Below the pieces are notes generated by a model. The model saw nothing but the letters and a program-made list of their open reading frames with translations, did not search any database and was not told where the DNA came from. A DNA stretch of 58,899 nucleotides, counting the filler, from Sphacelaria rigidula (Eukaryota), in the NCBI GenBank assembly GCA_964200075.2. It is 9 parts of 9 records of this genome, joined end to end, with 100 filler letters (N's around TTAATTAATTAA, not from the genome) between each part and the next. Parts side by side here need not be neighbours in the genome. Positions count along the whole stretch, not along the records: positions 13,113 to 19,568 come from CAXNAA020019967.1; 8 more parts are not named here. The stretch is one strand, 5' to 3'. This document shows positions 1 to 58,899 of this stretch, piece after piece. The position numbers were made by a program, and so were the translations under genes. Within the stretch, counting starts at the first letter, position 1. Every line of letters begins with the position of its first letter.

Positions 1-3000
1 AATATTGTGTGTTTTGTGGGGGGTGGGGGGGGGGGGGGGGGGGCTTTCCGGAATAACGCTTGATTACTTAATTTTCTTAATTTTGTACAAGAGAACGCCT
101 GGATAAACAGGGCATTGCCACAAACAAGCCGCGAGAGTCAGCCCTTCGCCGTCTAAGGACAACACAGCATAGTAGTATCAGCGACAAAATCGCACGTTTT
201 TGTATAGTCAAAATTAGAAGCTGTTGCGCAGCGGAACGGCGTGGCTGATACGGTGGTTTGGTTTCGTGCCTGCTGTTCCCAGGAACTCTTGCCAAGCTCC
301 CCACGGCCAACTTCGAGCACAAGTTGGCATACACAACACACGTATGAGCAGTGCGCATAGAAGCACAGTGGAAAGCGTGTCCCCCCTGCCAACCCTTGTG
401 GGTGGTACCAGAGTTGTGACGAGGTTTCCATTGCCTGAACATTTCTGCCGAGATTGACTGTACTTTCGGCTCAATGATACGGGTAGAGGGTGAAAAACAT
501 TCGCCCGTGTCCTTTCATTCATGGTGAAACGCTGCGGCACGCCCATCGACCGAAACCATTTATATCGTATTACTTCTGCCAAGGGCTCACGTCCTCCTGG
601 CGTTCATCTACCGCCTACGCAAACCATCTTCTACAACGCGCAGGCCAGTCAGCGGAAAACATATCCGAACGCACACAAGTCCAGTGTGTTCGCCACATTC
701 AAGCCAACACATTTGAACCGCGAGAGTAGTCTATCTGGATCACGCACATTTTTCTCAAGTGAAATTTGTGCAGGTTCAATACTCGTCACCACGGGCTGCA
801 TTGTTGCAATCAGCTGATGTGAGACAATCAATCAATCAATCAACACATGAGCTACGTTCACCGCACAAGGACCAAGAACGGACCTGTTGTCACCATTCAT
901 TGGATGATGACCTGCTACGCAAAGGGCATATGACAGCGTGTGACGACAAACTCGCCATACGATATCGGTGTCGATCACCAACTATGTATCGACACCGATA
1001 GACGACCAAACCGTCTCGTTCAACGTCCCACTATCTATCGCTGATCTAATTTTTACCTACAGTTATTCTTACGGGATATCTGCAGTCTACTGCGGAGCTT
1101 CCTGGGCGCAGGGTCGCTTCATCTCCTGCCGCCCAAGGTTGTGTTGCGCAGGGTATACCGGCTGAAATTCGGATATTTACGAAAGTAACAAATAGGAATA
1201 TTCATCGTCAAGTACCCTTCCGGACCATAACCGAGTGTTTGGAACTGGGCTCGACATAAGTCCCGTCGAACCACAACGGGATGTTTGATGCACACTTTGG
1301 TATGGTTTAGTATGCACAACCTTGTGTTCAGAACGCACCCACCAGAGCGTACGCCTTGCCCTACATTTCTGCGGCACCAATTCATACATCTCGGTTAGTG
1401 GCTCGAGGCATCCTGACTCATGGTTGTGCTGTACTGTCTGTTGTACTGTACCTGTGAGCACGCACTATTCAGCGGGGATGGTTAACCAGGTAGGTGGCCG
1501 TCAGGGTGGGTCATCTATTGAATCCGTCTTGCGTCTGCTTTGAATATGGATGCAAGACGCGAATAACCCAGGTTGTTCAGGCGCTAGTCAGGCGTTACAC
1601 GACTACAATGTATTTCAACTGGCGGTCGAACGGTCGAACATTTGAACATTTGACAGCCAGAGTGTGTAATCTGGGTTGCGGTGAGGATTTTTTTCAAGTG
1701 TATGTGATGCCGATTCAACACATGACGCGCTCTGGATATTTGAAGGGTCAGCGCAGCAGCAGCATCAGGCCCTGGTTGAAGTTGCCCTTTTCTCTTCACT
1801 GTCAAAGGGTGCGTAGCATGCATCGCCTTCTGTTGACTTGTTGTCGTCGTCGCTGTCTTCACATTCACCATCACTTTCTAGATTCACTGGAGGAGACTTT
1901 GTATGTACAGTACTGTAAAGTACTGCTGTTGTACGGGTACGTGTAGCCTATATCCAGATCAAGTGACAAACGTTCAAAGTTGAATGTATGTACTCGTATG
2001 GACTTCATGGGCATGGGCGTGCGCGCGGGGGGGGGGGGAGTTGTCTATTGCGTATTGGGTGACATTTCCACCTGTGTGTGGAAAAAATATTTTGATGAAA
2101 TGTACATGGCTTTGTGCGGTACAGACTGGACAACTATTGAAAGTTCGTCAAGAGCACATGTTCCCCACTCGGCTATGAATGTGCGAAATACGAATTCATG
2201 AGACTCGGGCGCTACACAATCTAAATCTAGGAACAGTAAGCGTCTGGGGTCGTAGGACACAATGTGCCGCAAAAAAAAAGACACTCGCTCCCGTTTGTGG
2301 GGCGTGAAGGACAACATAATATATCTCGGAGAGACTTGTCGTGGAGGCAATCATGATCATCATAAAATGGTTCATCTACTCGCACCGCGTGCGTGTAAAA
2401 AATATCCGGAGAAGTTTTGTTTGGCAGGATTACGGATTCCATTGATCAAGTGACTAGGACACAGAAGATGAGTCACGTCCCTTATCAATATGGTAAATGG
2501 TTTGTGTTGCAGCCGTCTGTCTTGAATTTCCCCCGAAACCTCTGATGAAGATCGGGACACAAAGCGGTGCGCTCACAAGGCGGTGTACTGAGAGCGGGTG
2601 CACAAGCACATAGCACTGGCACGACCATCTCGCCATTGTCAGGCGATCCTGTTTGTTCTGTACCGTACCATTCACCGTCGACAAACACTCGCGCCGCGCG
2701 CCCGTGATATCAAGAAGAGTACGAGTGATTCTGATTCCCCGTCCCCCCCCCATACCCAGCCCGTTGATGATAACTATTCTGAAGTTTCCATGGTTGAACA
2801 CTGTTTTGTTAAGGACATGTGTCCGTATGGCGCCGCATCGAATATTGTTGGAGCCCGCACACACGCACGCTTCTTGGCAGCAGAAGTTTCGAATCGTGCC
2901 CGGCCCGGGACTAGATACAGGATAGACAGAGCCATGTATATGTTCCCCCACTCCTGGGTGACCGTGCTATCACGCTGCGAGTATGTGTCTGATTCAGTGA

Positions 3001-3242
3001 CTCGTTTCCAAAATTCGTGGTGTGAAATATCGTCAAGCATGGTTGAGAGTTCGTCTATGATGATAGTACAACAGTTTCCTGAGAGGCGATAGCAGCGGGC
3101 GCAACTGCAGCTCGGCAAGCATCACACGTGCTACCTACGTAGATCGACCCGCGCGACCGACACCTTGAAAAATACTCATCGAAGATACACCGAGACCTGG
3201 TATAACGCAAACCAGGACGCGAAGTGCAGTGCAGTGACTTAC

Positions 3243-4691
3243 AAAAGCTTCTCGCCGTAGCGTGTGAGCAAAAACATGTTCCTGCCTGAAAAACGTGCAG
3301 CAAGAAGAACAGAGCAGTAGCACTGCCCTGCGATACGATCGCTATCTAAGACATCGACAACTTTCTACTGTGATGAGTGGGACCTCCTCGAACTACCGTT
3401 AATTACAAAACAGTAACCGTCCAGTGACAGCTGGCGGGCAGGTTGCACATACCGAAAGGTTCTTGACCAAAAAAACACCAACAGCCACAGCATACTGCAG
3501 ACAGTCACCTACCGCGGACTGCTGACTCGAGCAGTACAACCTGTACAGGATCAGGCTACACAGCAGCTGCAGTGTACAAAAACGATGCAGCCGCAGCCAT
3601 TGCAGCTGCAGATCACATCCCTGTCATCATTCATCTAACCCCCGGTCCATTCTCCCGGTATGCACCAACCAGGAACAAATTCCACAAAGCACACCTTGAA
3701 AGCACACGAGTCAGGGCACCGGGCACCTTGGGCGGTTTGCCCATGACAGCATCCTCAGCAGCGACCGCAGGAATGCTTCTGTCCTCCTCCTCTTCTGATG
3801 TCGAAACAGAAGCGGTAGTTTCTCCGCTAGCCGCGCTCTCTTCCGCCCTGTCTGCGCCCGATTTCGAGTTGGCTGGGCTAGGGGACGCGATGATTTCCCT
3901 TGGAGTCTCCCCACCACTTGTACCTAGTCCACTCTTGTCAACATCATGATCGCCCATCTTTACACCCTGTACGAATTCTCCGCTTGAGTCGAAAGCGGTC
4001 TTCGGCAACGCGCCGCGATCGGAGGTGATGTTTTTACTTTGGTGCCTGGCAGTGTGACACTGCTCTGATGGGGTCACAGCGACTGACGATCCAGTATTCA
4101 TAGACACAGTCGTATCAGCACCACCATTCTGACCCCCCTTCAAGAGGTGCGCATTGCCGTCACCCGCGTGCACAGGGGGCAGTGCACCGGCCATTTGGCC
4201 CGACTCTTTCTCTAATTTCTCTTGATCCCGAACCTCAGAGGCATCAGTGCGGACGCACAAGGGCACGCACTTCATGATGACGGCAGCGAGCCTCCCTGGA
4301 ACAAGCAAGGCAGCGCCACTAGTATGGGAAGAACCCGAGAGCCCAACCGGCGCCCTGCTGTGGTGTATGGATCGGTTGCAGCCTACTGGGTATGGTGGTG
4401 TACGGGGGTACTGCTCGATCTCTTGGCGGAAGTAACTTGCACTGAAGAAGGAAGGGGGTGGTACGCAGTGACATCACTACTCTTTGTACTGTATACAGTG
4501 AGGAACAGTAACATTAAGTGTGTTCATGTTCTCAACCACTGACGGTTGGCCTGTTTCGCGGTTTGGGTGCGGGTGTCCCGTCACCAAGCGTTCTTGCTGT
4601 GAACGACGTGTAAAAATGAGATCGTCCCGGCTCGCTGGTGTCCCCCAGATGATGTAGTGGCGGAGGAAGGCCTTGGAGTCGAGGAGGGAAG
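3243..4691 (-). CDS. Unknown spliced gene fragment; candidate exons 4691-4585, 4441-3695, 3285-3243
   Basis: Each exon has a pyrimidine tract plus CAG acceptor and a GT donor (gtgacg, gtgtgc, gtaagt). Phases are compatible (2,2,0). The 747-nt exon is open (ORF 3631..4308 extended upstream) and low-complexity S/E/G-rich. No family recognised. Confidence 0.45.
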
Positions 4692-5289
4692 CTGCGTGTA
4701 AAGAGCTACATGGGACATATATGAAGTTCGGCAGCTAAAGACAGACCAGACCGAGCAAACGACGGAGCTTACAACAGATATTCTGTATGACCTTGTGCTA
4801 TCGTTATTTTGTATGACTTTGTGCACATGGATTTTTTGTATGTGCGTGGGTCCCTATTATCCCTTCACACTACCGTACTGCCTTCGACTTTCGAAACAGA
4901 GTCCTTCCTATTCTCCCAAACTACGAGTAATACTATCCTCTGATCGTAAGCACTGCCTTCGCAATTGCGCATAGCAGTTTTAATCCGTATACCCTCAACT
5001 TTATGACTTTCTCTCCGCACTGTTCCTGCGTCCACACTGTTCGTGGGTACCGGATAATCTATAGGATCTACGACGCTGGGGTCTACGATGCAGTACGATA
5101 TGAGTGGATTTGTAGATTTGTCACAGATTTGTATGATATATTCTGACAGATTCTGACAGATCTGGCGTTTGTTGTTTGTTTGTTTGTTTGTTTTGTCTTT
5201 CTTTCTTTTCTCTCTCCGTTGAACTCGGGGGAGCTACTTCTCACCGGTTTTCGTGGCGTCGCTCTTCTTATTTATTCATTTTTCTTTAT

Positions 5290-5410
5290 TTTGGTAATGT
5301 GTCTGGTAAGGAATAGCAGGGACGGTATTGGAAAGGCGAGCATACGCCTGTGACCACGGGTTCGCGAGATCGGGCTAATGTGTGAAAATAATAATAATAA
5401 TAATAATAAT
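5290..5410 (+). mobile_element. Probable 3' end of a non-LTR retroelement with an (AAT)n tail
   Basis: Short segment ending abruptly in about 7 AAT units. It shares GCCTGTGACCACGG with the repeat at 7414 and 12977. Confidence 0.3.
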
Positions 5411-5960
5411 TCTGACGGTTACACGCGGTGGAACGCACTACGAGAACTGTCTATGATGATCGGTGTGTCCGGTGTCGGGGACATCCATCCGTGAATGTGC
5501 CGTTCTCACGTGCGTACGTGATCGACCATGACTCTCTTTTCCCTGGCAACCCCAGCTACAAGCTCTCTTTCCCAACAAGCATTGATCGAACGACTCCCTG
5601 CTGGGGCCATAACCCTCAGTCGCTCGTCCAGTGCCGGATACAACACACGCGGAAGAAAACATGAAACTCGTACTACTGTAGCACCTTGACTTATTTTTTT
5701 TCCCCTGAAGAAAGGAGCGCAAAACTGACAGTTGAACTATCACGGTTTCATTGATTGAGTTATTGATTGTCGCACTCTAATCCAGATGGACTTTACCCGC
5801 GCGGTCTACGGGTCAACCCGTACACCGACTCTAATGGGAGCCGTTCAAAATTCCTGCTCAAAACTGCCTTTTTAGCCCTTCTCAGTCGTTTTCCGCCTGA
5901 AAAGAGGGCTAGGCGGATGTTGACGCCTCGTAATGATTTCTCCATTCATTGAGGCCGTTC

Positions 5961-6157
5961 CAGGGCAACCTTGCATTTCCCGCTGGCCGCACTTTCATTT
6001 TTAACCAAACACGGATTTCCAACAAAAAACGGTCAAGCGATAAGAAAACAGGGGGAAATTTCGATCACCTGACTGTTTTTACTGAAAAGCCGTGTCTCGC
6101 TTTATTCACTTGGCCAGAAACAAAAGCGCGGCCAGCGGGGAATGCAAAGTTGCCCTA
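5961..6157. mobile_element. Small MITE-like element with ~30-bp inverted termini
   Basis: Left AGGGCAACCTTGCATTTCCCGCTGGCCGC matches the reverse complement of right GCGGCCAGCGGGGAATGCAAAGTTGCCCT. No clear TSD. Confidence 0.55.
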
Positions 6158-11615: not shown

Positions 11616-13195
11616 TTAACCATGAACATTTCCAGCCCAACGCCCGTAAACTCCGCCATGAAGTCTACTACTGTATTACACAGCATGTGGGTCCTGTGGA
11701 TGCTCACTTTATCGCACAGGTTACAGAAGATATCGTACCCCATAAACATCGCACCACTGTTGTGATTTTTTCACGCCCGAATTGTCATCACACGGGCGGG
11801 TGTGACGTCTTATACAACCTACGGTGTCTTCCTTATCACGGCTTGAAACCGTCTATCTAAGGAACAGGGGGAGGGTTTCCAAGGGCTCAACTGGCCAGAG
11901 CTACCAGTTTGCAGCCCCAGGTAGATATGTGTGCAGTGCGTGAGGGCACGCATGGAACAAGCAGTAGTGCTGATCTTCGGGTATGTGTGATAGAGAGCGT
12001 TCTCCCGATATGTGGGCTCACAAGCACCTGCTGACAAATGTCTTTCATCAGATCAGAGCAGAGAGAGGGAGTATCGGGTAGCGCTCCTTTATGGATTCGC
12101 CGTCTTTGGCCTGCAGTATACCGTCGATTGTGCACCATAGGCCAAAAGAATCACAATAGGAACGAAGCATACAAAATTCAAACGAGAACGTTCACTCACG
12201 CGATTCAGGCTCACCTGTACAAAGTGGGGGCGCAGCTATAGTCCGCAGTAGGGAGAGAGATGATCGGCTATCCCGTTGGAGATGATGAGATCCCAGCGCC
12301 ACTTACAATGAAGTACGAAGCTAAAGAGCAAGCTGCCAGAGCACAATAGTACTCGAGACCGGAGTCAAGAGAGGGGCGAGGTGAACCGCTACCGTCCCCA
12401 ATGAAGACCACGAATCACGGCGTGCGACGCGTTGTACTGTTGGGGTGTAGATGGAGCCTGACGCAAACAATGGGTGAAATTTTCGAAAAAAAGTATATTC
12501 TGTCTTCTTGTTCTTTCGAGAGCTTGTGGCAACGTGGTGAGTTTAGTTTACCGCTTGGGAGGGTGAAGAAAGTTCTGAGGAAAATTATGGTTTGGTACAG
12601 ATGAGGATGGTCCTAAAATTATTACTACGTTATACAACGGCGGGTGAAATTAATCCCTGGATCCACACAACCCCCCCTCCCCCAGTAGCTCCTCATTTGA
12701 TTTTTTTGCTCAAACGAGACAACTGTTTATCAGGCTTTGAAGCGTCACTTGCTCAGCAAGACGTTGTCGAAACAATGCGTACGAGCCGTGCATGGTTTGT
12801 TCGTGTGTTTCACAAATAAACTTGGATGGTGTGCAGTGGTTTGAGCAGTGTTGAGTGTTGTTTTCGATTAATTTATCAAAAATAGTTCTTCGATGATTCA
12901 GGATGATTTAACCCTTAGACCGCGTTTGTGAGTTTTCCACTCTGGGTCTATTTTATTTCATTGTGGTTTCTTCTTCTAGCCTGTGACCACGGAAGGCGTC
13001 CGCATAAGATGCNNNNNNNNNNNNNNNNNNNNNNNNNNNNNNNNNNNNNNNNNNNNTTAATTAATTAANNNNNNNNNNNNNNNNNNNNNNNNNNNNNNNN
13101 NNNNNNNNNNNNAAAGGATGCCCCCCCCCCCCCCCCCCCCCCCAAACACACATCACGACAGGCTGGGCCGGCCAAGCGCGACCAGGAATATTGCC

Positions 13196-13484
13196 ACGCG
13201 ATTATACTGCTCAATTTTGGATCGTTTCCAATGAAATTTTGACATGATGTACAGGGCGTACGTGCGAAGACATCATCTTTCCTCCTCTTCACTTTGTTTT
13301 CTTCGTGAGTTATTTGAGGTTCAATCTCAGAAAAAAAACTGTTCTGAAATGTTCCGTCGCCAATAACTCACGGGGTGAGTGGAGGGAATGCAGGGGAGGA
13401 AAGATGATGTCTTCGCACACACGTCCTGTACATTGTGTCAATATTTCATCTTAAACGACCCAAAATTAAGCAGTATAATCGCGT
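13196..13484. repeat. Foldback element with ~100-bp inverted arms; a third arm copy lies at about 13705-13830
   Basis: ACGCGATTATACTGCTCAATTTTGGATCGTTT...GCGAAGACATCATCTTTCCTCC matches its reverse complement at 13390-13484. Confidence 0.7.
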
Positions 13485-14319
13485 TTTCGTGTGGAAACCG
13501 CTTCCCATGTGGAGATGGATCAGCCATGACGGGAATGGGAAACTCTGAACCACGCTTAAGTTTTTTTCCCTGAAATTATGACACGATGTGCTTTAGCCAT
13601 GTTCAACGACCCTAATCCCCCCCCCCCTCTCCCCCTTGTCTTGTTTTTCAATGAGTTCTCAAGGATTTTGTCCCGAAACAAGCCTGTTCCGAAATTTGGA
13701 TTACCGATAACTCACGAAAAACGAACACAAAAAAGTGAAGGGTTAACAGGAGGGACTTTGTACATACGTTTTGTGCATCGTGTCAAAATTTCAAGGTAAG
13801 CGACTGAAAATTGAGCAGCGCAACCACGCTTTTCTGGTGAAAACCGGTTGACTTGCTATTGGGGTACAACAACCTCCGCCGGAACTTTGACGTTCTGTAC
13901 AAGCTTTTTCACCCACTACTCACTGGTTTGCACGCTACCATCAGACGCCTTGGCGCGCTGGAGGCCTCGTCTGCGTGCCATCTCAGACACTGCGCACATT
14001 CAGTACGACATGCATTGTGGTACAACCACAACTTGGGTAGCACCACCACTTTGCGGCCGCGGCACAACCGACTGCAACCGAAAATACGATTTCAGCCGGT
14101 TTTTTTTCCCTCATCCCGCCGCATATGTCACCCTCAACTGTCTACACGTCGCAGCTGACTACAGTTTGGTATTTCGTTTGGTGGGAACTTGTCGGATCGC
14201 AGTGCTACGTGGAGAGAAAGACGCGCGTTGATTTGTTGACCACCACGATGTGTTATTGTAGGCACAACTTGCGATGCATCGCCAATTAGAACTGCCTGAA
14301 GGAAAGTCGCCTAATAGGG

Positions 14320-15985
14320 CGGTCCAGCATGTATAACGTACGGAACATGTCCAGAAAAAAAAATTCAGCCATGGCTGATGAGGGTGTATGGAAGACAGTA
14401 AGGAAAGGGCAGGGTGGAATAAGGTGGGGAAGCGTAGTCGAGAACGTATGGAGGGATATGAGAGGAAACCAAGAAGAGATAATGTCCATAGGTGAATGTG
14501 AGAAGATTGGAAAAACAAAAAAAAGGGGGTAAGACAAAAAGTGAACGAGGAAGAGCACCCGAAGATATACCGGGGGTTGAAACATGGGATAGGGATGAAA
14601 ACGTATTTGCACGCCCCGATGACTACCCGAAAAAATTCACGGTTCGAACGAATTAGAGTTCATACAGGTTGACTCCTCATGAATGTTGAGTGCGAATCAT
14701 GTACCAAAGAGTCATCCGGTACGAATCACAGATGGTGGAAGTTGTACGTTCAAGGCCATACCGCACGAATCATGGACTGATAATGTGTATACTTCGGGTT
14801 GTGTAACACGAGTCAGGATTGGGAATCACGTACGAATCACGGTCCATGTGCGAATCACTGGTGGGAAACACATACTCATGATTCATCCTGCATAAACTGA
14901 AGGGTGGGGAACATGTACCTATGATTCATCCGTGAAAAATGGAAGGTGGGAAACATGTCCCGTTCATTCACTTCTCGCGAATTGCAGGTGGGAGGGATGT
15001 ACGTGTGATTCACGCCCTATCAAATGATAGGTGAAGACCATGTACCGACGGCTCATACCGTACAAGTGCATGTGCCATCCCGCATGAAGCAAAGGGCGGG
15101 AAACATGTACAGTTTATTCATCTCGCACGAACTACGCGTGGGAGAGATGTACATGCCGCTCACGTTGTATGAAATGACATGTGATAAACACGTGACGACA
15201 ATTCATACTGTGCAAAATGCATGAGGAAAAACATGTACAAGTGATTCATCCCGCATAAAGCAAAGGGGATTGATGTGTGTGCCCATGATCACGCCGTGTG
15301 AGAGGAAGGTAGGACACATGTACCTTCGACTGTGTACCGCAGAATCACGAACTCGGAATGTGTACACTCCAATTAGTGTCGCACGAATCACGAACCTATA
15401 ACATGTACAAATCACAAATAATGGACGAATCGTATGATTGATTCGTCCAAATGTTGATTATGAGTTGGATCATGATTTTATTCGTCCGAATCGTGAAAAG
15501 GTTGGAAGTAAGGTCTCGGGTGGGGGACCTGGACCTGCCAGGGAGAAGAAAGAGATATAGCGATAGTAGGGTGGAGGAGGTACATGCAAGGAATTGCCCC
15601 TGCGGCAAAGCAAAACAACAGAGAGTAGAGTTCATGTAGCGGGAGAATGTGAAGTACAGTATACAAGGAAGAACGGGACGTGTTGGAGGGAGAAATGTTG
15701 GAAATAAACGAAGTGAGATCAAATCGTCAGGTATATTAGATTGTAGCGAGAAAACGGTCCCTGACCTATGAGATAAATTGTGGCGGCCACAGGCGGGGAA
15801 ACAGGAAGGGGATGAGATATGTCAACGGTTGTGTGTCATGTATGGAAAAACCGTGACGAGCGCCCAAATGTTGAAGGTGTCTCTATTAGAAGTAGGAACT
15901 GTCCTCCGCCTCAAGAAGGATGGACAGTCAATGGTCAAACGACTAAGGTGAGCAACAAATTTTTATCCCCCCTCCCTCCCCTCCT
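14320..15985 (+). mobile_element. Decayed LINE 3' portion (ORF2 C-terminus with CCHC knuckle) ending in a C-rich tail; interrupted by a TIR element
   Basis: Fragments read VWKTVRKGQGGIRWGSVVENVW, KIYRGLKHGIGMKTYLH, then [insertion], then RVGDLDLPGRRKRY..CPCGKA..(frameshift)ESRVHVAGEC..VWKNRDERPNV. The C-x-C...H-x4-C pattern resembles the LINE ORF2 zinc knuckle. Related copies lie at 28395-28615 and 29905-30062. Confidence 0.7.
14636..15497. mobile_element. Non-autonomous TIR DNA transposon filled with a degenerate ~42-bp tandem repeat, nested in the LINE
   Basis: Termini TTCACGGTTCGAACGAATTAGA vs reverse complement TTCACGATTCGGACGAATAAAA. Internal units resemble GGTGGGAAACATGTACCTATGATTCATCCCG. 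The LINE-like coding sequence resumes immediately after the element. Confidence 0.75.
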
Positions 15986-16015
15986 TCCACACACACGGTG
16001 AACACATTTTTCTAA

Positions 16016-16133
16016 ATCCGCGTTTTTCCACACGCGGGGTGGTTGTACCGACTTTTTTTTTTTTTTCATGAATGGAATCAATATCTCGAGCGTGCGACTT
16101 CGTCATTTTCGGTAACCATGGAGGTCTGAGAAT
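16016..16133 (+). repeat. ~120-bp dispersed direct repeat (second copy 17449-17568)
   Basis: CACGCGGGGTGG..GTACCGAC..GGAATCAATATCTCGAGCGTGCGA..CGGTAACCA(T/C)GGAGGTCTGA occurs twice. Confidence 0.75.
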
Positions 16134-16872
16134 GCACGATCGGCGCAACCCGTGGCCGCTCCAGTACGGGGCGGAGCCCCCCGGATCTCACCCATCGGGG
16201 GGGACGTGCTCGGGCGCGTCAGCGCTCCCCGGTTGCCGGATGCGGCTCACTTTGCGTAAGTAACACTACTCACTTCTCACAGGAGTGCTTCCGGCGAAGA
16301 AACTGGCTCTCGTGGTGACCACCGCAACACAGCGTGGTCGCTGGCATCCATGGTGTCAAGTCCGATGGACCAACCGGGGTCCGCCTCACCTGTCCAGCGA
16401 AAGCTGTTCGTCTCTTTGACGTTTAGTTCGAGGTAGCTTCTTTCGTGGGGTCGGTGCTCCTTGCCCTGCCCACACTCTTTCTTCTGCGCGGTCCAGAGGT
16501 GCTGCCCGTCGGGTGACCGATCGGGGTCGGGTTCGCGGGGGTGGTGTGGGTGAGCGATGTACTGGTGCACTTGCCCGCATGATCCTCGGGGGCTGCCAAC
16601 GGTCTCTCCTTTGTTAGAGCTCCCATCTGTGAGATTCCTGAGCGTCGGTTGGGCTAGAATAGTCTTGGTTCGCACCATGCTGCGCTGGCTGGCGGCCCGT
16701 GTACGCATGCTCGCGGGGAAAATTGAGCTCGCGGGGTTCCCGCGTGGACGGAGCTAATATTGAGGGGGCCGGGGAATCAATATAACGATCGTTCCGCAGA
16801 GGATAGCTAATATTGAGGGGGCCGAGGAGGAACAACTCGTTTTCGTACCTGTTGTATGCCGTATAAAAAATC

Positions 16873-17441
16873 AGCCTGGTCCGGCAAAAACTCGGCGTGC
16901 TCCGTCCCGGCTTTGTAGGGACGGACCCCCGATGGGGTTGGCGTCGATTGACGATGATGCTGAGAAATACGCCACTTACTACGTAAGCTACGCAACCAGG
17001 TTACCGTTTTTTTTGCGCGCTTGCTTTTTTATTTTTGCGGTCACCATGATGATGATCGAGCTGGATCATGTTGTGCGGTGTGGGAAAACCTCAATTCCGC
17101 ACAAAGGAGATGATCGTACTACGTGGTGTCGAAACGGTGAGACACCCATGAGGCAGTGTATCAGCCATGGCTGTCTCTGGAAGTGGCGATACCAGAAAAT
17201 GAAGCAACTCATTGTAGGCTGTTATCCAAATACAAGATACTCAGTAGGCCTCGGTCCGAACCATCTCAGCAGGATGCAGCCCACCCTTTATGCGACTCGC
17301 CGAACACACCACGGTGCTTCACGCTTGGTGGTTGGATGCGAGCCTGGTCTAGCGAAAACCCGGCGTGCTCCTTCCCGGCTTTGTAGGGATGCGAGGTCAA
17401 TGATCTTATGACTATGGCTTGCATGATTACGAGCACACCCC
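16873..17441 (+). mobile_element. Family A non-autonomous retroelement (~570 bp), apparently full length, with a C-rich tail
   Basis: Collinear with 23283-23878. A ~49-bp segment at the 5' end is repeated at 17341-17389. The 3' ~70 nt are shared with the LINE tail. Confidence 0.75.
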
Positions 17442-18303
17442 TTCTAACCCCGTTTTTTTCAACACGCGGGGTGGCCGTACCGACCGTGTTTTGTCTTTTT
17501 CGTGAACGGAATCAATATCTCGAGCGTGCGAGTTCGTGATTCTCGGTAACCACGGAGGTCTGAAAATGTTCTCCACCCTCGGGGGTGCTATCCTCCGTCA
17601 TCATCTGTACCCGTGTATGTCGAACCTTGGGAGTATTTCCGTCGCCCATGGTGAGACCGTTCGATCATGTTTCTCCAAAGAAGTCATGGGGAAAGCAATA
17701 TTCAGACTATGCAGCAAATGCACGGATCGTTGCAAGTGTAAGCATCTGAGTTGAGTGAAGACAGTGTAGATGATGTATATGTTGGAGATGATGTATATGA
17801 TGAAGATGAATGTGACACCCATATGCAGACTTCATTTATGTGTATATGCCTGTATCGCAGGATGTGCTCTGTGCAAGCGAGGCGAGTCTACCAGCTCAGA
17901 CTTGAGAGCGCAAAAAAACAATATTTATGGATGAAATGCGTCAGCCCCGAGTGCAGTGAGTCTTGTCGGTTTTCGAGTGACTCCGTGTGTCAAACACGAC
18001 TTACTCTTGACGTGGTTTTAATATACAAGTACTTCTGCAGTGAACATGCCTTCTCCTTGTCAGCGTGTGAAAGTTCACCCCAATGGTCAAATGACTAAGG
18101 CAAGCAACAAATGAGTACGCCCCCCCTTCGCCCCTTCCTCCCCCCTATATCCACCAGACTGATAAGCTTGTTTTGTATGTGTATTTTCTCTCATAGCGTA
18201 GAAATAAATATTTCGCGATCCTCTCCAGTTCGCGCTGTACGGCAGGCAGTTGCCATGATATATTCCGAATGAGAGCAGGGTGTACGTGTTCGCGCGTCGA
18301 CAG

Positions 18304-18408
18304 GTTTTGGATGAGGCGGATCGGTTGCTGCAGACGGACAGCTTGGGCGAAATCATGAAGATATTCAAGAGGTTGCCCCAGCACGGTGTTGGAGACTTAC
18401 GGCTGCAG
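18304..18408 (+). CDS. DDX1: DEAD-box RNA helicase exon (motif II), DDX1-like
   Basis: CAG acceptor; translates VLDEADRLLQTDSLGEIMKIFKRLPQHGVGDLRLQ. The P....RLQ spacing before motif III resembles DDX1. The putative donor is GC (CAG/gcacgt). Confidence 0.7.
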
Positions 18409-19340
18409 GCACGTGACGAGATATTTTTGTTTCTTCATCAACACACCAGTCCAATCGAAGAGCTCCGACTCGCGGTCAAAAAACGAGTCCAGGGTTATGT
18501 GTTCGCTTTTTCCAGGGTGTCGTTTCTTTTTCCCGCTGGAGGATAAGGGTCAACCACGAGTGTAATGGAACGACGTAGTATCATTATCCAAATCACAGTC
18601 TCGGGAGGGAGGATTTGATCCAGTCATTCTCCACTAGTGTTTGTGCGGGAATATAACGTGAGTATGTACGAAGCTTAAACCGTTGAAATACACGCTGGTT
18701 TATTGAAGAGGCCATGTTTTATTGTGAAATAAAAAATATTCACATGGGTGGCAAGCAGTTTCTATCTGATTCTGTAATCGACTTCGTAATTGTCGCGTGG
18801 CCGACATTTGGACGAAGGAAGGAAGGCAAGGGTACTGAGCATCATGGCAATATATCAACGTGTATTGTAGTGTAAAACGCTGCAGCCGCAGTATCCGTCT
18901 CCTTCTCCCCTGAAAAGCACAGGTCCAGCGGATGATATCGTAGGTAGCAAACGTGTACTTGACTTAATGTAGCCTTCTAGTGAAGGACAGTAACATTATT
19001 TTCAAACATGCTCGAGACTCATGAAGATCACCTGCGAAACCGTAAAGAAGTAGTACAAAGTAGCGGAGGTATGAGTGAAGAAGCTGGACGAGGTATCCTG
19101 TAGTTAGACCCCTTGCTTCAGCGTCAATATAATGCCCTCTTCTAATATATTTGGGGCAAACCAAAAGGATCCTCACTCCGTTTGATGAAGGGGTCTGGTC
19201 CTCTGGGTGGGCGGAGCCTTGGCTGTTGTCCGCAAGAATTAAGAACGAGCGGTGCTTATCTCGTTCTCACTTGACACTGTGAAAAACAGTACAGAGTGCT
19301 ATCCAGCACTAGTACACCTCCACTCCCCTCCGACAGTCCC

Positions 19341-19568
19341 CTTTGAGGATTGGCATCGGATGGCGATGACGCTGTAAAGCACACCACTCACTGCGTGAGC
19401 TAGGCGACCAGGTTGTCGTTTTTCTTGTCTCCATCTTGAAAGTGATGCGTGGTCGATGGTCAAACGACTAAGGCAAGCAACATATGAGAATGCCCCCCCC
19501 CCTGTGATGGTGAGGCACCCATGAGGCAGTGTATAAGCTGTGGCTGTCTCGGGAAGTGGCGATACCAG
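19341..19568 (+). repeat. Stack of family A fragments and a LINE tail separated by C-runs; truncated by the contig end
   Basis: Family A internal piece 19341-19428, LINE tail 19430-19503 ending in C10, and a family A piece 19505-19568. Confidence 0.7.
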
Positions 19569-19668: not shown

Positions 19669-19917
19669 GTGCTCCGTCCCGGCTTTGGAGGGATGTGAGG
19701 TCAATGGTCTTATGACTATGGCATGCATGATCATGAGTACACTCTAGCCCCCGATACTCCGTCTCGAAAGGGATGCATAACTAAGGCGAGTAACAAATGA
19801 GAACCCCTCCCCCCCCCCCTCACCCCCGCTCCGTCGCTCCGTCTCGAAAGGGATGCGTGGTCAATGGTCAAATGACTAAGGCAAGCAACAAATGAGTACG
19901 CCCCCCCCTCACCCCCT
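19669..19917 (+). repeat. Three tandem poly(C)-tailed 3' ends (one family A, two LINE type)
   Basis: 19669-19752, 19757-19828 and 19836-19917, each ending TGAG(T/A)AC followed by a C-tract. Confidence 0.8.
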
Positions 19918-22900: not shown

Positions 22901-24908
22901 CCTTGAAACATTGCACCATGGCACGCGGTTTTGGATCGCCCGGACCTTTGTTGGTGTTGTTTTCGGTGGGCGAACCCAGGTATCGAAAATTACGCTTGCT
23001 CGGCACGCTGAGCATGCTTGGTATTGTTAGATGGATATGTTACATCTCTTGCTCGGGTGGGCGACTCACTACTTGCTCCATCAGCCCTTATCAACTACTT
23101 CACCGTGCCAGGCATGTCACAAGTGTGTATGTTACATGTTTGTGCCAGTGCCTTCCGGCTTCTTGGGGGGTATGTACGCCATCGCTGCGGCGCCCGTAAA
23201 TTAGGCGGGTGATTGTTGTCATGAACCTTGAATTATGTGATGGGATGTTGGAACCCCACCCCCCTCCTCACTTCCCTCCATTAGCCTGGTCCGGTGAAAA
23301 CCCGGCGTGCTTCGTCCCGGCTTTGCAGGGACTGACCCTCTACGAGGTTGGCGTCGCGTGGCCATGACGCTGTATAACGCACCACTCACTGCATAAGCTA
23401 GGCAACCAGGTCACTGTTGTTTGTGGCGCGCTTGCGTTTTTTTTTTGCGGTAACCATGATGACGGTCGAGCTAGACATCATGTTGTGCGGTGTGGGAGAA
23501 CCTCCATTCCGCGCGAAGGGGATGATCATGCTACATGCTTGTTTAAATGGTAAAACACCCGTGAGGCAGTGTGTAAGCCATGGCTGTCTCTGGAAGTGGC
23601 GATGCCAGAAAATAAAGCAACTCATCGGAGGCTGTCTGTCATCCAAATGCAAGACAATCAGTACATTTCGGACCGAATAATCTTAGCAGGATGCAGCCCA
23701 CCCTTCACGCGACTCGCCGAGCACATCACGGCGCTTCGCGCTTGGTGATGGGTTGCGAGTCTGGTCCGGCGAAAACCCAGCGTGCTTCTACCCGGCTTTG
23801 TAGGGATGCGACGTCAATGTTCTTATGACTATGGTATGCAAGATCATGAGTACACCCTTCCCCTTCCTCACCTCCCTTTCGTTTTTTCCGAGGTCTACGG
23901 TGTAGCGTTGAATAGCTGCGCGGCTGTTGAATACACGTGGCGGCAGCGTCGAAACACCGCGTACAACACTATCTACTACATAAACTTGAGTGACATGGGA
24001 GAAGTGTTTATTTTCGTCTCGACACTTATTTTTGGCTGACTGCATGTCCCCCCCCCTTCCCAACCTCTCCCTTCCCCTCGGCGCCCTCTACACGACCGCG
24101 GCAGATTGAGAAGCAGACGCTCGCCGAGCACGGAGAGAGCCTGCAGCACTGGGCCACGGAAGCTGCCGTTGCTTGTAGATCATTATTCAAGGATGACATA
24201 TCTAGCCATGCTGACGAACAGAAGGCCAACAAAAATAACAGTCTCAGTACTACAGCGCCCCCGTCAGAAGATTCAGCAGAAGATAACGACCCATACGTCG
24301 AGGGTGGAAGATATCCCGACAGGATTTCTAGCGATGATACCGATGGTTTGGGGTCCGCAGGGGGGGGCATTGCTAGCGACAATTCCGCCAGCGCAGGCGC
24401 GGTAGTCACACCTACAAGAAATGACCAGAAATTTGAGGGAGATACGGGATATGTCAACACCGCGGTCGCCTCCATCAACAGTAACAACGAAGGCCAGCAG
24501 AGCACGCAAGAGGGACCCCCTCAGCCTAGCCAGACAAACTCCCAGGCCCATGCAGTTTCAAGAGGCGACACGGTTTTTGATAGCTGCCACAATGACAGCG
24601 AGCATGAGGGCAAAGATCTCGTCGGGGGTTCTCCCAAATCCAGAGTGGGTGGTGCTGTAAATGATGGCGATGACGTCGGGGGCATGGTGAGTGGCGGTGG
24701 GGTAATGTCCGGTGCGCCCAGCAGCAGCACTCATGAACATCCTACTGCTCTCTGCGGCGTGGGCAACAGTTGTGCTCCTCCGGGTGTCTCGGTGACCTTT
24801 TCCACAACGAAGAAAATAGACTGGGCCCGCATGATTCTAGGAAGGCGTTTTCGGGAACCTTCCTGGTGGAGGCGCAACAAGCAGCATCGCGCCGGGTGTC
24901 GGCCGTGA
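19936..24908 (+). CDS. VASt (StART-like lipid transfer, LAM/Aster/VAD1-type) domain protein, 3' part; exons 19936-20222, 20787-20962, 24105-24908 (stop)
   Basis: The spliced translation EW..RELEYMHPV..KTQRI..EESRFKGIPYANYFS/VHTHW..VAVGVSWKKRTVLRGK/IEKQTLAE..W follows the VASt pattern (PY.DYF.V..RW; V.W.K....K..IE). Junctions are GT-AG and phases are consistent. Confidence 0.8.
21335..22905 (-). mobile_element. hAT-superfamily non-autonomous transposon, 1571 bp, in the VASt intron
   Basis: Perfect 8-bp TSD AAACATTG (21327-21334, 22906-22913) and TIRs CAAGGG(C/T)AGGTCG(A/G)GTAGAGTAT. It has long subterminal arrays. A central minus-strand peptide YSLGMVSTPDSRRLRDVSLQTMLNTWAND resembles the hAT C-terminal dimerisation region. 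Confidence 0.88.
21395..21850. repeat. Subterminal tandem array of ~41-bp palindrome-containing units (second array about 22365-22830)
   Basis: The unit TACTCAAAATTTGAGTAGAGTATTTGAGACCATACTCGACC alternates with a ~50-bp variant containing AGTGATACTCTATACTCAAGTATCACT. Confidence 0.9.
23283..23878 (+). mobile_element. Family A non-autonomous retroelement, second full-length copy
   Basis: Same 5' start (AGCCTGGTCCGG) as 16873, internal repeat at about 23758-23806, and C-rich sequence on both flanks. Confidence 0.75.
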
Positions 24909-28036: not shown

Positions 28037-30638
28037 CGCGCGCGCGTACGTGTTCATGTGCGATTTTTATTTGATTGTCGCACTTTTACCGACCCCCCAG
28101 GGAACCAGCCGTGGTCACGTGGTTGACGTACCCGAGCCGAGATGAGGCAAAACTGAAACACTCGCTGAAGAAGAAAACAAAACAAAACAGAAGAAGTAGA
28201 ATAAAACAGAGTCGACTAGAAAAATGAAAAATAAGAAGACAGAAAGACAGGAATAAAAAAAAAAGCATGTGTGTGTGTGTGCAATATGTATATGTATATG
28301 TATATGTATTTTATTACTCGAACGGACGCCGTGGAGACGAGCTGTTGATGCCGCTCCTCTCCTGGGGGGGGTGAGGAAGTAGATGCACGAAATTGCTCTT
28401 GTGGGACAGCAACAGAGAGTGGGAGATGAGTGTGAACTAGTCAAAGGAGGAACGGGACGTGTGAGAGGAGAAGACATGCATGGAGGATCCAAACCAATGT
28501 GACATGAAAACGGTTGGTACGCTAGAGGGATAGCAACGAGAAAAAACATCACTGTACGATTAGATAGATGGTGGCCAGAAACAGACGGCTAAACAGGAAA
28601 GGGATCAGATATGTAAAAAAAGGTTATTGTGTACGAGCTGATCCAGCCAAGAGTTTCTATCGGCGATTCAACAGTTACGCCCAGCTTAATATCAGAAGTT
28701 AAAAGCTGAAACTTTGACCGGAGATTTTTGTTATCAATACGCGGAAAGTAGCTCAAGCAAAGAAAAAGAAAATAATAAGAACACAACGTCAAAAGTAAAA
28801 TGAAATCTATGTGTGTGTTGTTTTGTCGTCCCATCTATTCTGGACGCCGATCTACACCGTTCGCTATATGTGGACGCACCAGCCGGGGTCACGCAGGAGG
28901 AAGGTCGATACTGGAGCTTTTTATTTTTTTATTTCTCTTTAGTACCCCACCTTCCTTCTGCGGTGCTTGCCTTTCTTATTTTTCATCGCGAAAGGGGTTC
29001 AGCAGTCCCTTTCCCTCGTCGACCGTCAAGTCGACATTCTATCTGAACGAAAATAATGCCACAGCTCAATTTTAAGAATATATAAAATTCTATTTCTTCC
29101 ATTACGCATTTTCAATTTGATTGCAGGAAATTCTCGTATAAATTCGGATCAAAGCTCCAACAATTGAGCTGCACATGCGCATGTTTTGTGTCACACCGCG
29201 GCAGCCTGGTGGTCCAAGTGACACAGGAGACTCCAGCAATGGAGAAGTGTAAAATGAGATGAGACTCCAGGTACGGAGGGCACGAGTTCGAATTCTGAAA
29301 AACAGGCATCGGTCGCCCCGGTGGCTCAGTTGGTAACCTCGAAACCTTCTGACGGTTGGGTCGTGGGTTCAAATCTCGGTACGATCTGGGATTTTTTCTC
29401 ACGCAATGTCCGACAGTGGAGAGCGACTATAATATGTCGTGGGTGCACAAAATTCGACTTGACGGTCGACGAGGGAAAGGGACTGCTGAACTCCTCTCGC
29501 GATAAAAAAGAAAGAAAGGCAAGCACCGCAGAAGGAAGGTGAAGTACTAAAAACAAGCAGAAAAGAAAAAAAAAAACTCCTGTGTTGACCTTCCTCACGT
29601 GTGATTCCCCCGGCTGGTGCGCCCACGTATTAAACCGTATGGTGTAGATCGGCGTCCAGAATAGATGGGAGGACAACACAACACACAACACTCATTTTGC
29701 CTGCAGCATCTGGTGACGTCGTTGAGGTCATATATTTATGCGGTACATGTTTTTCCTTTTCTCCTTAACGGCGATAGAGCGTGTATCACCATCACCAGAT
29801 TAATCTGCAGTTTTTACAGCGATATGCTTCCATCGGGCTGATGCGGGAAGCCTAAAAAGGTGTTGTGTGCCCGGGGTACGCACGTCTTTTTCAGGCTGGC
29901 CCACAGCTCGTGATGCGTGGGGAAAACAACGTGACGAGCGTCCATGTGTTGGACGTGTCGGCTCTACTCGGAGTAGGAACAACGTATGCTCCGTCTCGAA
30001 AGGGATGAGTGGTCAGCAGTCAAATGACTACGGCAAGCAACAAATGAGTACGCCCCCCGCCGCCTCTCTGTGTATGTAGGTACGGCATGCAAGATCGTGA
30101 GTACACCCCCCCTCTCTCTGTCGTTGCTTTTGTGCTGCCCCTTTTCCCCCGTGCCCCCCTCCCCACTTTGTTGTTGTTATTGCTGCTGCTGCTGCTGCCT
30201 GCTGCCTTTTCTTCTAGGTTGCAGAGCGTTTGGAACTTCCAGCTTTCGTTGTGGAGCGGGCACGAAGCCTCCTAGACGAGAATACACGACAGGTGATGAA
30301 AAATAGGTTAGTCGAGTCATGGTCCTCCACTTTTCTTGTTTTGTTTTGTTTTATTTTTCGTCTTGCTTTGCCGATGCGTCAACAGCCATCATATGTTTTT
30401 TTTTCTTGTTTTTTTTTCTTGTTTTTTTTTCGCCTCTATGGGTCTTTTTTTGTTTTGATGCTGCTGCACCGTGGAGCTCCTCATGTAGTTTCGATTAATT
30501 TGTATCTTCAATACCCGGCGGTTCGTATGAGGATGACATACAATGAGTGAGGGGATATCTAAACGAGCAACTTCGTGCCGTGGTGATGGTTATCGTTGTT
30601 GCTTCTGTTGTAGGACTAGGAAGAGACGTAGGATTAAC

Positions 30639-50954: not shown

Positions 50955-51429
50955 GTAGATTATGGGTTCCATTATATTGGTGCTACTGCTGTTGCTCTTG
51001 GTAGAGGGCAACAGCAGACCAAGCTTGTGATAAGCTCAGCTCCGACCGCTGAGGCGCGGGTCGCACGGTTTATGGCTGGGGTGCCACGTGCCGCGTGAAT
51101 GAACACGGGGCTTCCTGATGGGAGCGATGTACTCAGGCAGGATGCGTGACTCTCAGGACCATGCTGGTTTTCCGAAACTATGTTATGTGTGCAGTGTGTT
51201 CTCGTGTTCTTACGGCACCGCGCTATATACGCTGACACAAGGGCGTGCTGTGGGCGCTTTCGATGGCCGTGGTGGTCTTTGGGTGGCGACAGTCGTCTAC
51301 GCTTGTGTTTGGCCCGGCTCCGGGCTTTGACAATCGGATCGTGTGGTTCAGACTGGAGTCATAAGATCTGATCTTCGCACCAGGCGTTTTTGTTCAGATC
51401 CGTGGTGGAAATGTGCATAGCAAAGGGAC

Positions 51430-51655
51430 GAAATTCGACTCAACGGTCGATGAGGGAAAGGGACTGCTGGACCCCTCTCACGATAAAAAAATCAAGGCAA
51501 GCACCGCAGAAGGAAGGTGGGGTTCTAAATACAAACAAGGAAGAAAAAACTCCTGTGTTGACCTTCCTCCTATGTGAGCCCGGCTGATGCGCCCAGATAT
51601 ACCGAAGGGTGTAGACCTGCGTCCAGAGTAGATGGGACGACAACACACACAACCC
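51430..51655 (+). mobile_element. 5'-truncated SINE family B copy
   Basis: Collinear with 29450-29690, including the ACAACACACAC tail. Confidence 0.75.
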
Positions 51656-58108: not shown

Positions 58109-58835
58109 GTGGAGGATCCAGGCCCGATCTCTGACGAGAGCGTCGCATTTTTTTTTTCCTTCCTATTTTTCAAGTGATCGCGACAGTTTGTTCTTGAACT
58201 TAGTTTTTTTCTTAAGATTTGATATATATTTTCGCGATCGTACTATACATTTATTCAATTTTTCGGATTTTCCAACGTATAACGGGCAGCCACGTGTTTC
58301 CCCGCATCGCATGATGCCAACTTTATTTTCAATTTTTGTTCAGATTCAGTTTTCTTCTTCGTCGATGTAACCTCATCTCGTCATGCTCAAGGAGGCATTT
58401 TGTAGGTATTGGAAAAATTGGACGAAGAATATATCACTCTCTTGTTCAGAACGGGGCCACGCGCGAGGCTGATTTTTTTTTTTTTTTCCGTCTTCCTGCG
58501 TCTGTCGTTGACGACGTTTCGTTCAGTCTTGGACACAACTCGCAAACCGAAAGAAGAGGTGTATTGTCCGTGTTCGATTCGCAGCCAGCTTTTCAATGTT
58601 TGTTTCATTTGTGTCTGTTCGGTGTTCGTGTGTTATCGTTGTGTTTTGGCTTGCCTCTCGATCATTCCATCAGAAAGGATGTTGTGAGGGGCGTGGCTGC
58701 GCATCCTAGTGACGGATTCCGGGGGGTTACAGAGTAGTTGATGAGTGCGTTCGAACAAGCGTTGCTGCTTTCAGCGACGATGTAAAGCGGAATTTTGTGG
58801 AAGAAACGGCCCAAAGTACCCACCTACTATCGTAG

Positions 58836-58899
58836 CACGTGGTCAATGGTTAAACGACTAAGGCAAGCAACAAATGAGTACGCCCCCCTCCCCCCCCCC
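58836..58899 (+). repeat. LINE-type 3' end with poly(C), at the window end
   Basis: GTGGTCAATGGTTAAACGACTAAGGCAAGCAACAAATGAGTACGCCCCCCTCCCCCCCCCC. Confidence 0.8.

Follow-up and report, generated by a model that had tools for sequence, protein, structure and literature searches.

The window analyzed here, by which we mean the whole stretch of 58,899 nt from Sphacelaria rigidula (GCA_964200075.2), consists of nine record parts joined by filler, of which positions 13,113–19,568 come from CAXNAA020019967.1; the TTAATTAATTAA linker found between N-runs in its gaps (e.g. 13013–13112) is an assembly mark and not biology. An earlier reading of this DNA, made from the sequence alone, had described positions 14320–15985 as a LINE remnant. 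A LINE is present there on the plus strand, but blastn comparison to L133, an intact relative from a metagenome contig, assigns only ~790 nt to it (14333–14617 plus 15495–15960), the rest being an 858-bp insertion with terminal inverted repeats (TIRs). The 5′ piece (14333–14637) is a truncated stretch of the region after the reverse transcriptase (RT), corresponding to residues ~1101–1210 of the related protein P0002 (54–58% by tblastn), and is 67% identical to L133 over 14333–14617. The 3′ piece (15496–15960, plus strand, 73% to L133) contains C-terminal codons, a degenerate tail and a CCHC region which, when translated, is split over two frames by a frameshift. The sequence-only reading of an ORF2 remnant with a CCHC knuckle therefore needs correction, in that the remnant spans only residues 1101–1360 of P0002, lacks the RT, and has lost its own stop codon: its end reads AACAAA-TTTTTAT-C6, where the frame has no stop and a T-rich stretch has replaced the terminal TGAGTACG ahead of a C-rich tract at 15967–15985 on the same strand. 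The copy at 14333–15960 is therefore an old, decayed 3′ remnant and a poor example of its family.

The non-coding TIR element that interrupts this remnant (14638–15495, no strand assigned) is foreign to the LINE, as indicated by dispersed relatives with identical boundaries and by its termini, which are of the CACGG...CCGTG type and are bordered by 8-bp duplication-like flanks. One relative (L285) has a perfect 8-bp flank repeat and matching termini. The element contains internal ~42-bp repeats and is dispersed in the genome, and we take it to be hAT-like, judging by the length of the duplication.

Recurrences of the tail had also been noted at 18081, 19430, 19757, 19836, 29990 and 58836. All six are present on the plus strand, with a C tract after every one, but most proved to be independent insertions of 39–65 nt rather than the ends of long LINEs. 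Tail-only copies occupy 18081–18127 (39 nt plus C7), 19429–19502 (64 nt plus C10), 19836–19916 (65 nt, with a C-led duplication in which a C-run and TCACCCCC occur on both sides) and 58838–58899 (45 nt, with a C-tract that reaches the window end), while the LINE copy at 28428–30058 is truncated to ~317 nt, interrupted by an inverted-repeat element, and ends in the tail plus C6. Three tails are nested in one region, where the 3′ end of a non-autonomous partner family (19669–19745, plus strand, its 5′ part lost in a gap) is followed by a degenerate tail copy with an internal deletion (19757–19819) into whose own C-run the next copy, at 19836, was inserted. The partner family is further represented by an element of ~570 nt at 16870–17445, which shares the tail stems and ends GAGCAC-A-CCCC, and by a second copy of ~580 nt at 23280–23862 that is 83% identical to it, both on the plus strand.

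Other features of the window lie near these copies. The inverted-repeat element at 28812–29687, inside the LINE remnant, is 876 bp long and consists mostly of long inverted arms, with a related copy at 51428–51651. Between 19836 and 20270, a tail copy and C-runs lie just upstream of a stretch coding for a VASt domain on the same strand, so this tail copy probably adjoins a 3′ splice site. The broken frames at 39287–42029 on the minus strand have retroelement-like wording (protease/RT-linker-like), and the one of them that was scanned had no Pfam match.

When a 27-mer of the tail was searched with up to three mismatches, it matched five times in the window and never in 100 shuffles, the copy at 19757 being too degenerate for this search. 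Across the 244-Mb assembly, the same 27-mer occurs without mismatch 2,627 times, compared with 0 for the reversed control. A 20-mer of the tail is followed by at least five Cs in 2,603 matches and by a non-C base in 174, a tally that counts only these two classes and so omits copies with one to four Cs; a C-rich tract lies within a few bases of the tail in most of the 30 non-C loci that were inspected by eye. Of 90 unfiltered copies, 85 have 40 nt of flank, and in these 85 the base after the tail is C in 98% and the first C-run is 0–14 nt long. The tail with its C-run is a real and abundant feature. An A-run of six or more directly after the C-run was found in 0 of the 85 copies, and neither they nor the contigs of outside sequencing runs contained a conventional poly(A)-tailed 3′ UTR beyond the C-run or, in the 85 copies, an L1-type poly(A) tail with an A-led target-site duplication (TSD). 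Beyond this genome, viral contigs gave no match by protein or by pattern, and GTDB contigs gave one (L292), which has the full tail and C-run in a bacterial metagenome-assembled genome (MAG) contig and probably represents algal DNA carried into the MAG bin.

The autonomous element to which this tail belongs was reconstructed from intact relatives and from long copies in the same genome. The C-terminal frame of an own-genome copy (L089) led to four proteins with 57–65% identity. Both P0002 (1,360 aa) and P0004 (1,328 aa, whose cluster includes Ectocarpus proteins, which makes a brown alga the most likely host) contain an APE endonuclease and an RT (Pfam PF03372/PF14529 plus PF00078) and end in ...TKASNK, and a C-terminal finger of the form C-x-C-x9-H-x4-C occurs in all four intact proteins. 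APE, FADD and CCHC motifs are present. A C-terminal CCHC finger is a feature of the RTE-X clade. The arrangement of R2 and CRE, with a restriction-like endonuclease (RLE) at the C-terminus in place of an APE, was not found, in that an APE is present, only three Pfam families were matched and ~100 residues follow the CCHC finger; 5′-truncated copies with TSDs of variable length are as in APE-type non-LTR retrotransposons. Open frames in the metagenome contigs, 1,253 codons long in L132 and 1,426 in L133, are followed by TGA, GTACG and a C-run (C10 after the 1,426 stop-free codons of L133), and own-genome copies show the same ...ASNK-TGA-GTACG-(C)n layout. Two suggestions of the sequence-only reading, that only ~5 nt separate the stop codon from the C-run and that the element has almost no 3′ UTR, are borne out by this distance of 5 nt.

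In the genome of S. rigidula itself, at least 153 matches to the APE region were found. Among 20 stretches fetched around such matches, one (L278, ~364–6057) runs for ~5.7 kb from 63-bp tandem monomers to the tail and C-run, and two others (L265 and L270) also link APE, RT and tail plus C-run, so that a LINE with an RT upstream of this very tail exists, as had been proposed. All five near-full-length copies examined contain 20–32 stop codons each, and among them no active copy was found. On the basis of sequence, we interpret the element as a brown-algal RTE-X-type LINE of ~5.7 kb with one predicted ORF (APE, RT, CCHC), the clade label being taken from a look-alike family in a published paper. 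A quick tree of 70 of the 130 proteins with RT coverage, drawn without labelled references, placed the five rows of this family together (SH-aLRT 99).

Two features at the 5′ side of the element were seen in passing. Between 4 and 11 tandem 63-bp monomers stand at the 5′ end of full-length copies (L278:417–927 as oriented, L265:302–772, L274:540–814 and L279:18–696), and these are possibly promoter units. A conserved N-terminal region precedes the APE (L133:874–1200; P0002 residues 5–100) and contains the first in-frame ATG; by eye it is RRM-like, with a best Atlas match of 0.77 that serves as a lead only and a single-sequence model of pLDDT 35.

The earlier inference that a cis signal overlaps the coding sequence gains support from a comparison of L132 and L133, which are 75% identical in amino acid sequence upstream of the last 40 codons. 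Where the two encode the same residue, they use the same codon in 21 of 21 cases within the last 23 codons, compared with 519 of 852 further upstream (p 3e-5). Of 48 windows placed upstream, the best reaches 87%, and four-fold sites are alike in 23 of 23 cases over the last 80 codons versus 185 of 321. The last 67 nt are predicted to fold into three helices, namely a closing helix (GUGCUC/GAGUAC) and two hairpins, one with GAAA and the other longer and interrupted. This fold was predicted from the LINE alone, with modest energy support (z −2.1 for L133 and −0.95 for L132).

The partner family shares these stems. It has 640 exact 30-mer matches genome-wide, its longest copies are 568–612 nt, and it also ends in C. 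LINE and partner tails are alike at 56 of 67 positions, indels excluded; across 19 partner copies, 1 of the 42 positions that are paired in the LINE fold differs, compared with at least 10 of the 25 that are unpaired (p 1e-4), a pattern of unchanged stems that is not the same as covariation. The single variable pair occurs as U-A, U-G and C-G, and its U-A form alters an encoded residue. The minimum-energy fold of the partner itself differs and is lower in energy (−25.8 vs −20.7 kcal/mol). A known ribozyme or tRNA-like RNA was considered and set aside, as no Rfam family matched L133 anywhere along its length at E values of 5 or less. The last 67 nt are thus constrained at the nucleotide level and shared with a non-autonomous partner of ~600 nt, and we take them to be a cis signal inside the ORF.

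The relationship between the C-run and the site of insertion was analyzed in 110 distinct tail copies from the first contigs of the assembly, the last 20 regions having been chosen with a CCCCC filter; 82–83 of them have a complete 5′ junction. In 64 of 82 copies, the 25 nt upstream of the 5′ junction include a run of four or more Cs, compared with 6 of 82 control windows placed 60–85 nt away, while G4+ occurs near 5 of 82 junctions and the window background for C4+ is 160 of 2,327. Flank-to-flank matches with at least six non-C bases were found in 21 of 82 true pairs and in 17 of 6,642 mismatched pairs. By a strict rule, 32 of 83 copies have clean duplications, each consisting of a C-run plus 5–15 further bases. 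Genome-wide, CCCC occurs within 20 nt upstream of 815 of the 1,460 minus-strand matches to a 22-mer (−65 to −44), the plus-strand count being left out since overlapping matches inflate it. In most cases, then, the TSD begins with the C-run, and some insertions add Cs. The sequence-only description of a LINE that terminates in poly(C) was thus right about the C-run at the end, but this run is not simply carried by the element, being usually the start of the TSD as well.

Gain of C is seen where target runs of 3, 3, 4 and 3 correspond to tail runs of 7, 14, 8 and 8 (L018, L143, L173 and L187, respectively). Among 19 simple duplications, 10 have a tail run that exceeds the target run, 2 have runs of the same length and 7 have a shorter tail run. 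These counts are only indicative, given that the copies are old, that short-read assemblies do not render homopolymer lengths reliably and that such runs also mutate once inserted. The shorter tail runs fit a nick inside the C-run. A fixed nick at the N|C border finds no support, given the same seven cases and the variety of bases that precede the run (T 17, A 8, G 7). Nesting was dismissed as the chief source of upstream C-runs, accounting for only 5 of 83. Two further observations were made at these junctions. In one case (L005), the duplication and the element are separated by ten filler bases that look like a telomeric repeat (GTTAGGGTTA). In addition, the motif CTATCGTAG recurs beside target C-runs (L005, L030, L036, L065 and window positions 58820–58835), which suggests that it is part of another repeat that supplies targets.

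The 5′ ends of the copies are also far from uniform in their distribution. In 45 of 83 copies the start lies 62–70 nt from the 3′ end, and 21 of these start at 66–67 nt, the 5′ base of the predicted closing helix. Put differently, 69 copies extend to 62 nt or beyond, and 45 of these go no further than 70 nt, while other 9-nt bins lose 0–8. The peak persists in the unfiltered subset (36 of 66). Over half of the sampled copies consist only of the 62–70 nt end. Across the genome, 415 of 2,930 exact 22-mer matches stay exact over 11 more LINE bases, a figure that divergence lowers. Contigs from four outside runs, representing three coded organisms and four studies, were aligned to L132, and among the matches listed all four runs have well-supported loose 5′ ends at −66 to −62 that are C-rich on both sides; being contigs only, they cannot show RNA ends. 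An equal peak was looked for in the partner family and not found, since at the matching helix base 0 of 26 junctions fall between 56 and 79 nt. The shared fold alone therefore does not cause the peak.

Much of this layout has counterparts in described systems. In a supplementary table on Ectocarpus from 2025, the entry for RTEX-1_Ec32 reads 'single EN-RT ORF; (C)n 3′' and that for RTEX-2_Ec32 '(C)n termini/TSD', with a 'C-rich' TSD and lengths of 5.5–5.9 kb; RTEX-N1_Ec32 is 607 bp and shares 60 bp at 83%, RTEX-1b has 3,007 copies over 1,059,065 bp (a mean of ~350 bp per copy), and the RTE-X label goes with a best blastp match to RTEX-4_NV (PMC12477816). In the main text, the term 'C-rich' does not occur (PMC12477816). 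The traits given for RTEX-1/2_Ec32 in these passages, that is, a single EN-RT ORF, a (C)n end, a C-rich TSD, a length of 5.5–5.9 kb and a partner of ~600 bp with ~60 bp of shared 3′ end at ~83%, are all found here, a likeness of described features rather than of consensus sequence, and in a different genome in which the long copies found are decayed. The passages and table rows on RTEX-1/2_Ec32 contain no mention of the 5-nt stop distance, a constrained 67-nt domain, a 62–70-nt peak or a mechanism. As far as the text seen goes, RTEX-1 is also named in Saccharina, its end undescribed (PMC4421812), and two further papers add no bearing detail (PMC5753468; PMC8501958).

RTE elements, as excerpted, have extremely short 3′ UTRs and abundant 3′-only copies (PMC2887409). 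They resemble the present element in having one APE-RT ORF, a simple repeat right after the stop and many 3′-only copies with TSDs, but their tails are di- or trinucleotide repeats and their insertion is not sequence-specific, whereas here there is a C homopolymer, a C-run target and a C-terminal CCHC. With human L1, as covered in the text seen and in PDB matches, the element shares the APE-RT-CCHC order, a homopolymer tail complementary to the nicked strand and a TSD that starts with the tail base (PMC12809410). It differs in using C/G instead of poly(A)/T-run, one ORF instead of two, and a specific 3′ signal within the ORF instead of relaxed RNA recognition (PMC12809410). LINE/SINE pairs with stringent 3′ recognition and shared tails provide another parallel in the passages available, since the partner shares the 3′ end of the LINE and a stem-loop lies near that end, but their signal is in the 3′ UTR, while here it is part of the translated sequence and also occurs as a lone, uniform mini-insertion (PMC3747384). 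The C end and C-rich targets are thus already tabulated for Ectocarpus, and a very short 3′ UTR is known in RTE. For a C-tail mechanism or uniform mini-copies, the literature searched, which was mostly open-access and did not include Repbase, yields the Ectocarpus table only. The present analysis adds a quantified relation between tail and target, a constrained signal within the ORF and a sharp ~66-nt product, which were not found in that literature.

The reading that we favor, at a probability of roughly 0.75, is that this RTE-X-type LINE uses a C/G version of the A/T insertion logic of L1, in which insertion is target-primed and the G-rich nicked strand pairs with the oligo-C end of the RNA. 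The protein would recognize its own RNA through the folded 67-nt domain, as in stringent 3′ recognition, and the endonuclease would nick the G-rich strand inside the G-run. The freed G-rich 3′ end could then pair with the oligo-C just beyond the 67-nt domain and prime reverse transcription, with slippage during priming altering the run length and second-strand cleavage taking place 5–15 nt beyond the run. Because every insertion lands before a C-run, the tail would be renewed from the target and poly(A) would be unneeded. The ~66-nt copies most likely derive from RNA that has lost its 5′ part as far as the protein-bound domain, or else from an RT stop at that point.

A close variant, to which we give not quite even odds, is that the RNA reads through the C-run into the flank, perhaps being polyadenylated further on, and that the RT starts internally at a C-run placed by the 67-nt domain, so that the 'poly(C) tail' would at no stage form the actual 3′ terminus of the RNA. 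The distance between stop and C-run has no room for a polyadenylation signal, and the C-run is genomic, inherited from the target duplication of the source copy. The DNA outcome would be identical; this account differs from the one that we favor only in the position of the RNA end. It is, by comparison, barely conceivable that errors of sequencing or assembly account for the C-runs, or that these reflect later microsatellite growth at a neutral end. Many copies do lie at contig ends and C-runs are common in the window, but the same end recurs in L132, L133, L292 and the four outside runs, C-runs accompany matching unique sequence on both sides, and a C end is recorded in the portions seen of the curated Ectocarpus models (PMC12477816).

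With regard to the ~66-nt copies, RNA that is trimmed or cut to the protein-bound domain is slightly favored over an RT stall or separate short masters, because the closing helix would be melted at initiation and the mode lies at the helix base. A stall on full-length RNA is a plausible competitor that we place somewhat below even odds: the 5′ strand of the melted closing helix (UGCUCC) would re-pair with upstream GGAGUA, and integration would finish at this hairpin. The alternative hairpin is present in a 118-nt fold and is LINE-specific, in keeping with a partner family that has no peak, and at a C/T variant there is no significant difference between short and long copies (T in 20 of 52 vs 5 of 26, p 0.12). 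Ends near −61 would be predicted from a stall at the hairpin base, but the mode is −66/−67 (21 of 83 copies), and a 6-bp hairpin would be a weak block for 65% of events. That the short copies are instead a separate non-autonomous family, amplified from masters of its own, appears quite improbable. They are less diverged (4.9% vs 6.7–10.3% in an ungapped comparison), and the T variant occurs in 20 of 52 short versus 1 of 28 long copies, but these long copies were found by a similarity search with a C-type query, which biases the comparison. Duplications, moreover, directly adjoin the −66 end without any flank having been carried along, and the 66 nt show no evident promoter, so that a defined RNA 5′ end would still be required.

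Distant relatives hint at a wider distribution of some of these features. In a metagenome relative with 36% identity in the RT region (L135), a (CT)n run begins 5 nt after the end of the ORF (L135:2494–2530), at this one locus. A C-terminal CCHC occurs in 95 of 150 distant proteins. The pattern [NHDY]G, 5–10 residues before the end, is found in 17 of 53 long-tailed proteins, 2 of 42 short-tailed ones and ~4–5% of control windows, a comparison that is a lead and not a test since the rule was set after all tails had been viewed; the pattern would fit a shared nucleotide motif that is read through by the frame. A bolder scheme, offered tentatively and in our view rather unlikely as a whole, is that the folded last 67 nt, bound by the protein, leave the mRNA as a discrete small RNA after cutting or trimming of its 5′ end back to the base of the closing helix, and that this RNA is retrotransposed alone as the commonest insertion product across brown algae, with the habit of running the ORF through the 3′ signal perhaps extending to a wider, unnamed lineage with different pyrimidine tails.

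In the text seen on human L1, the bias toward T-runs is still argued between the endonuclease and pairing of the tail with the primer (PMC12809410). A LINE with a C tail, a G-run target and intact relatives would make these two contributions separable by a swap of tail and target. The 67-nt signal would be a very compact LINE recognition element, with a potential use in RNA-templated insertion at GC-rich sites, and the ~66-nt copies are to be annotated as LINE products. Each insertion doubles a C-run and so creates a new target, which may help explain the C-runs and nested repeats in brown-algal introns.
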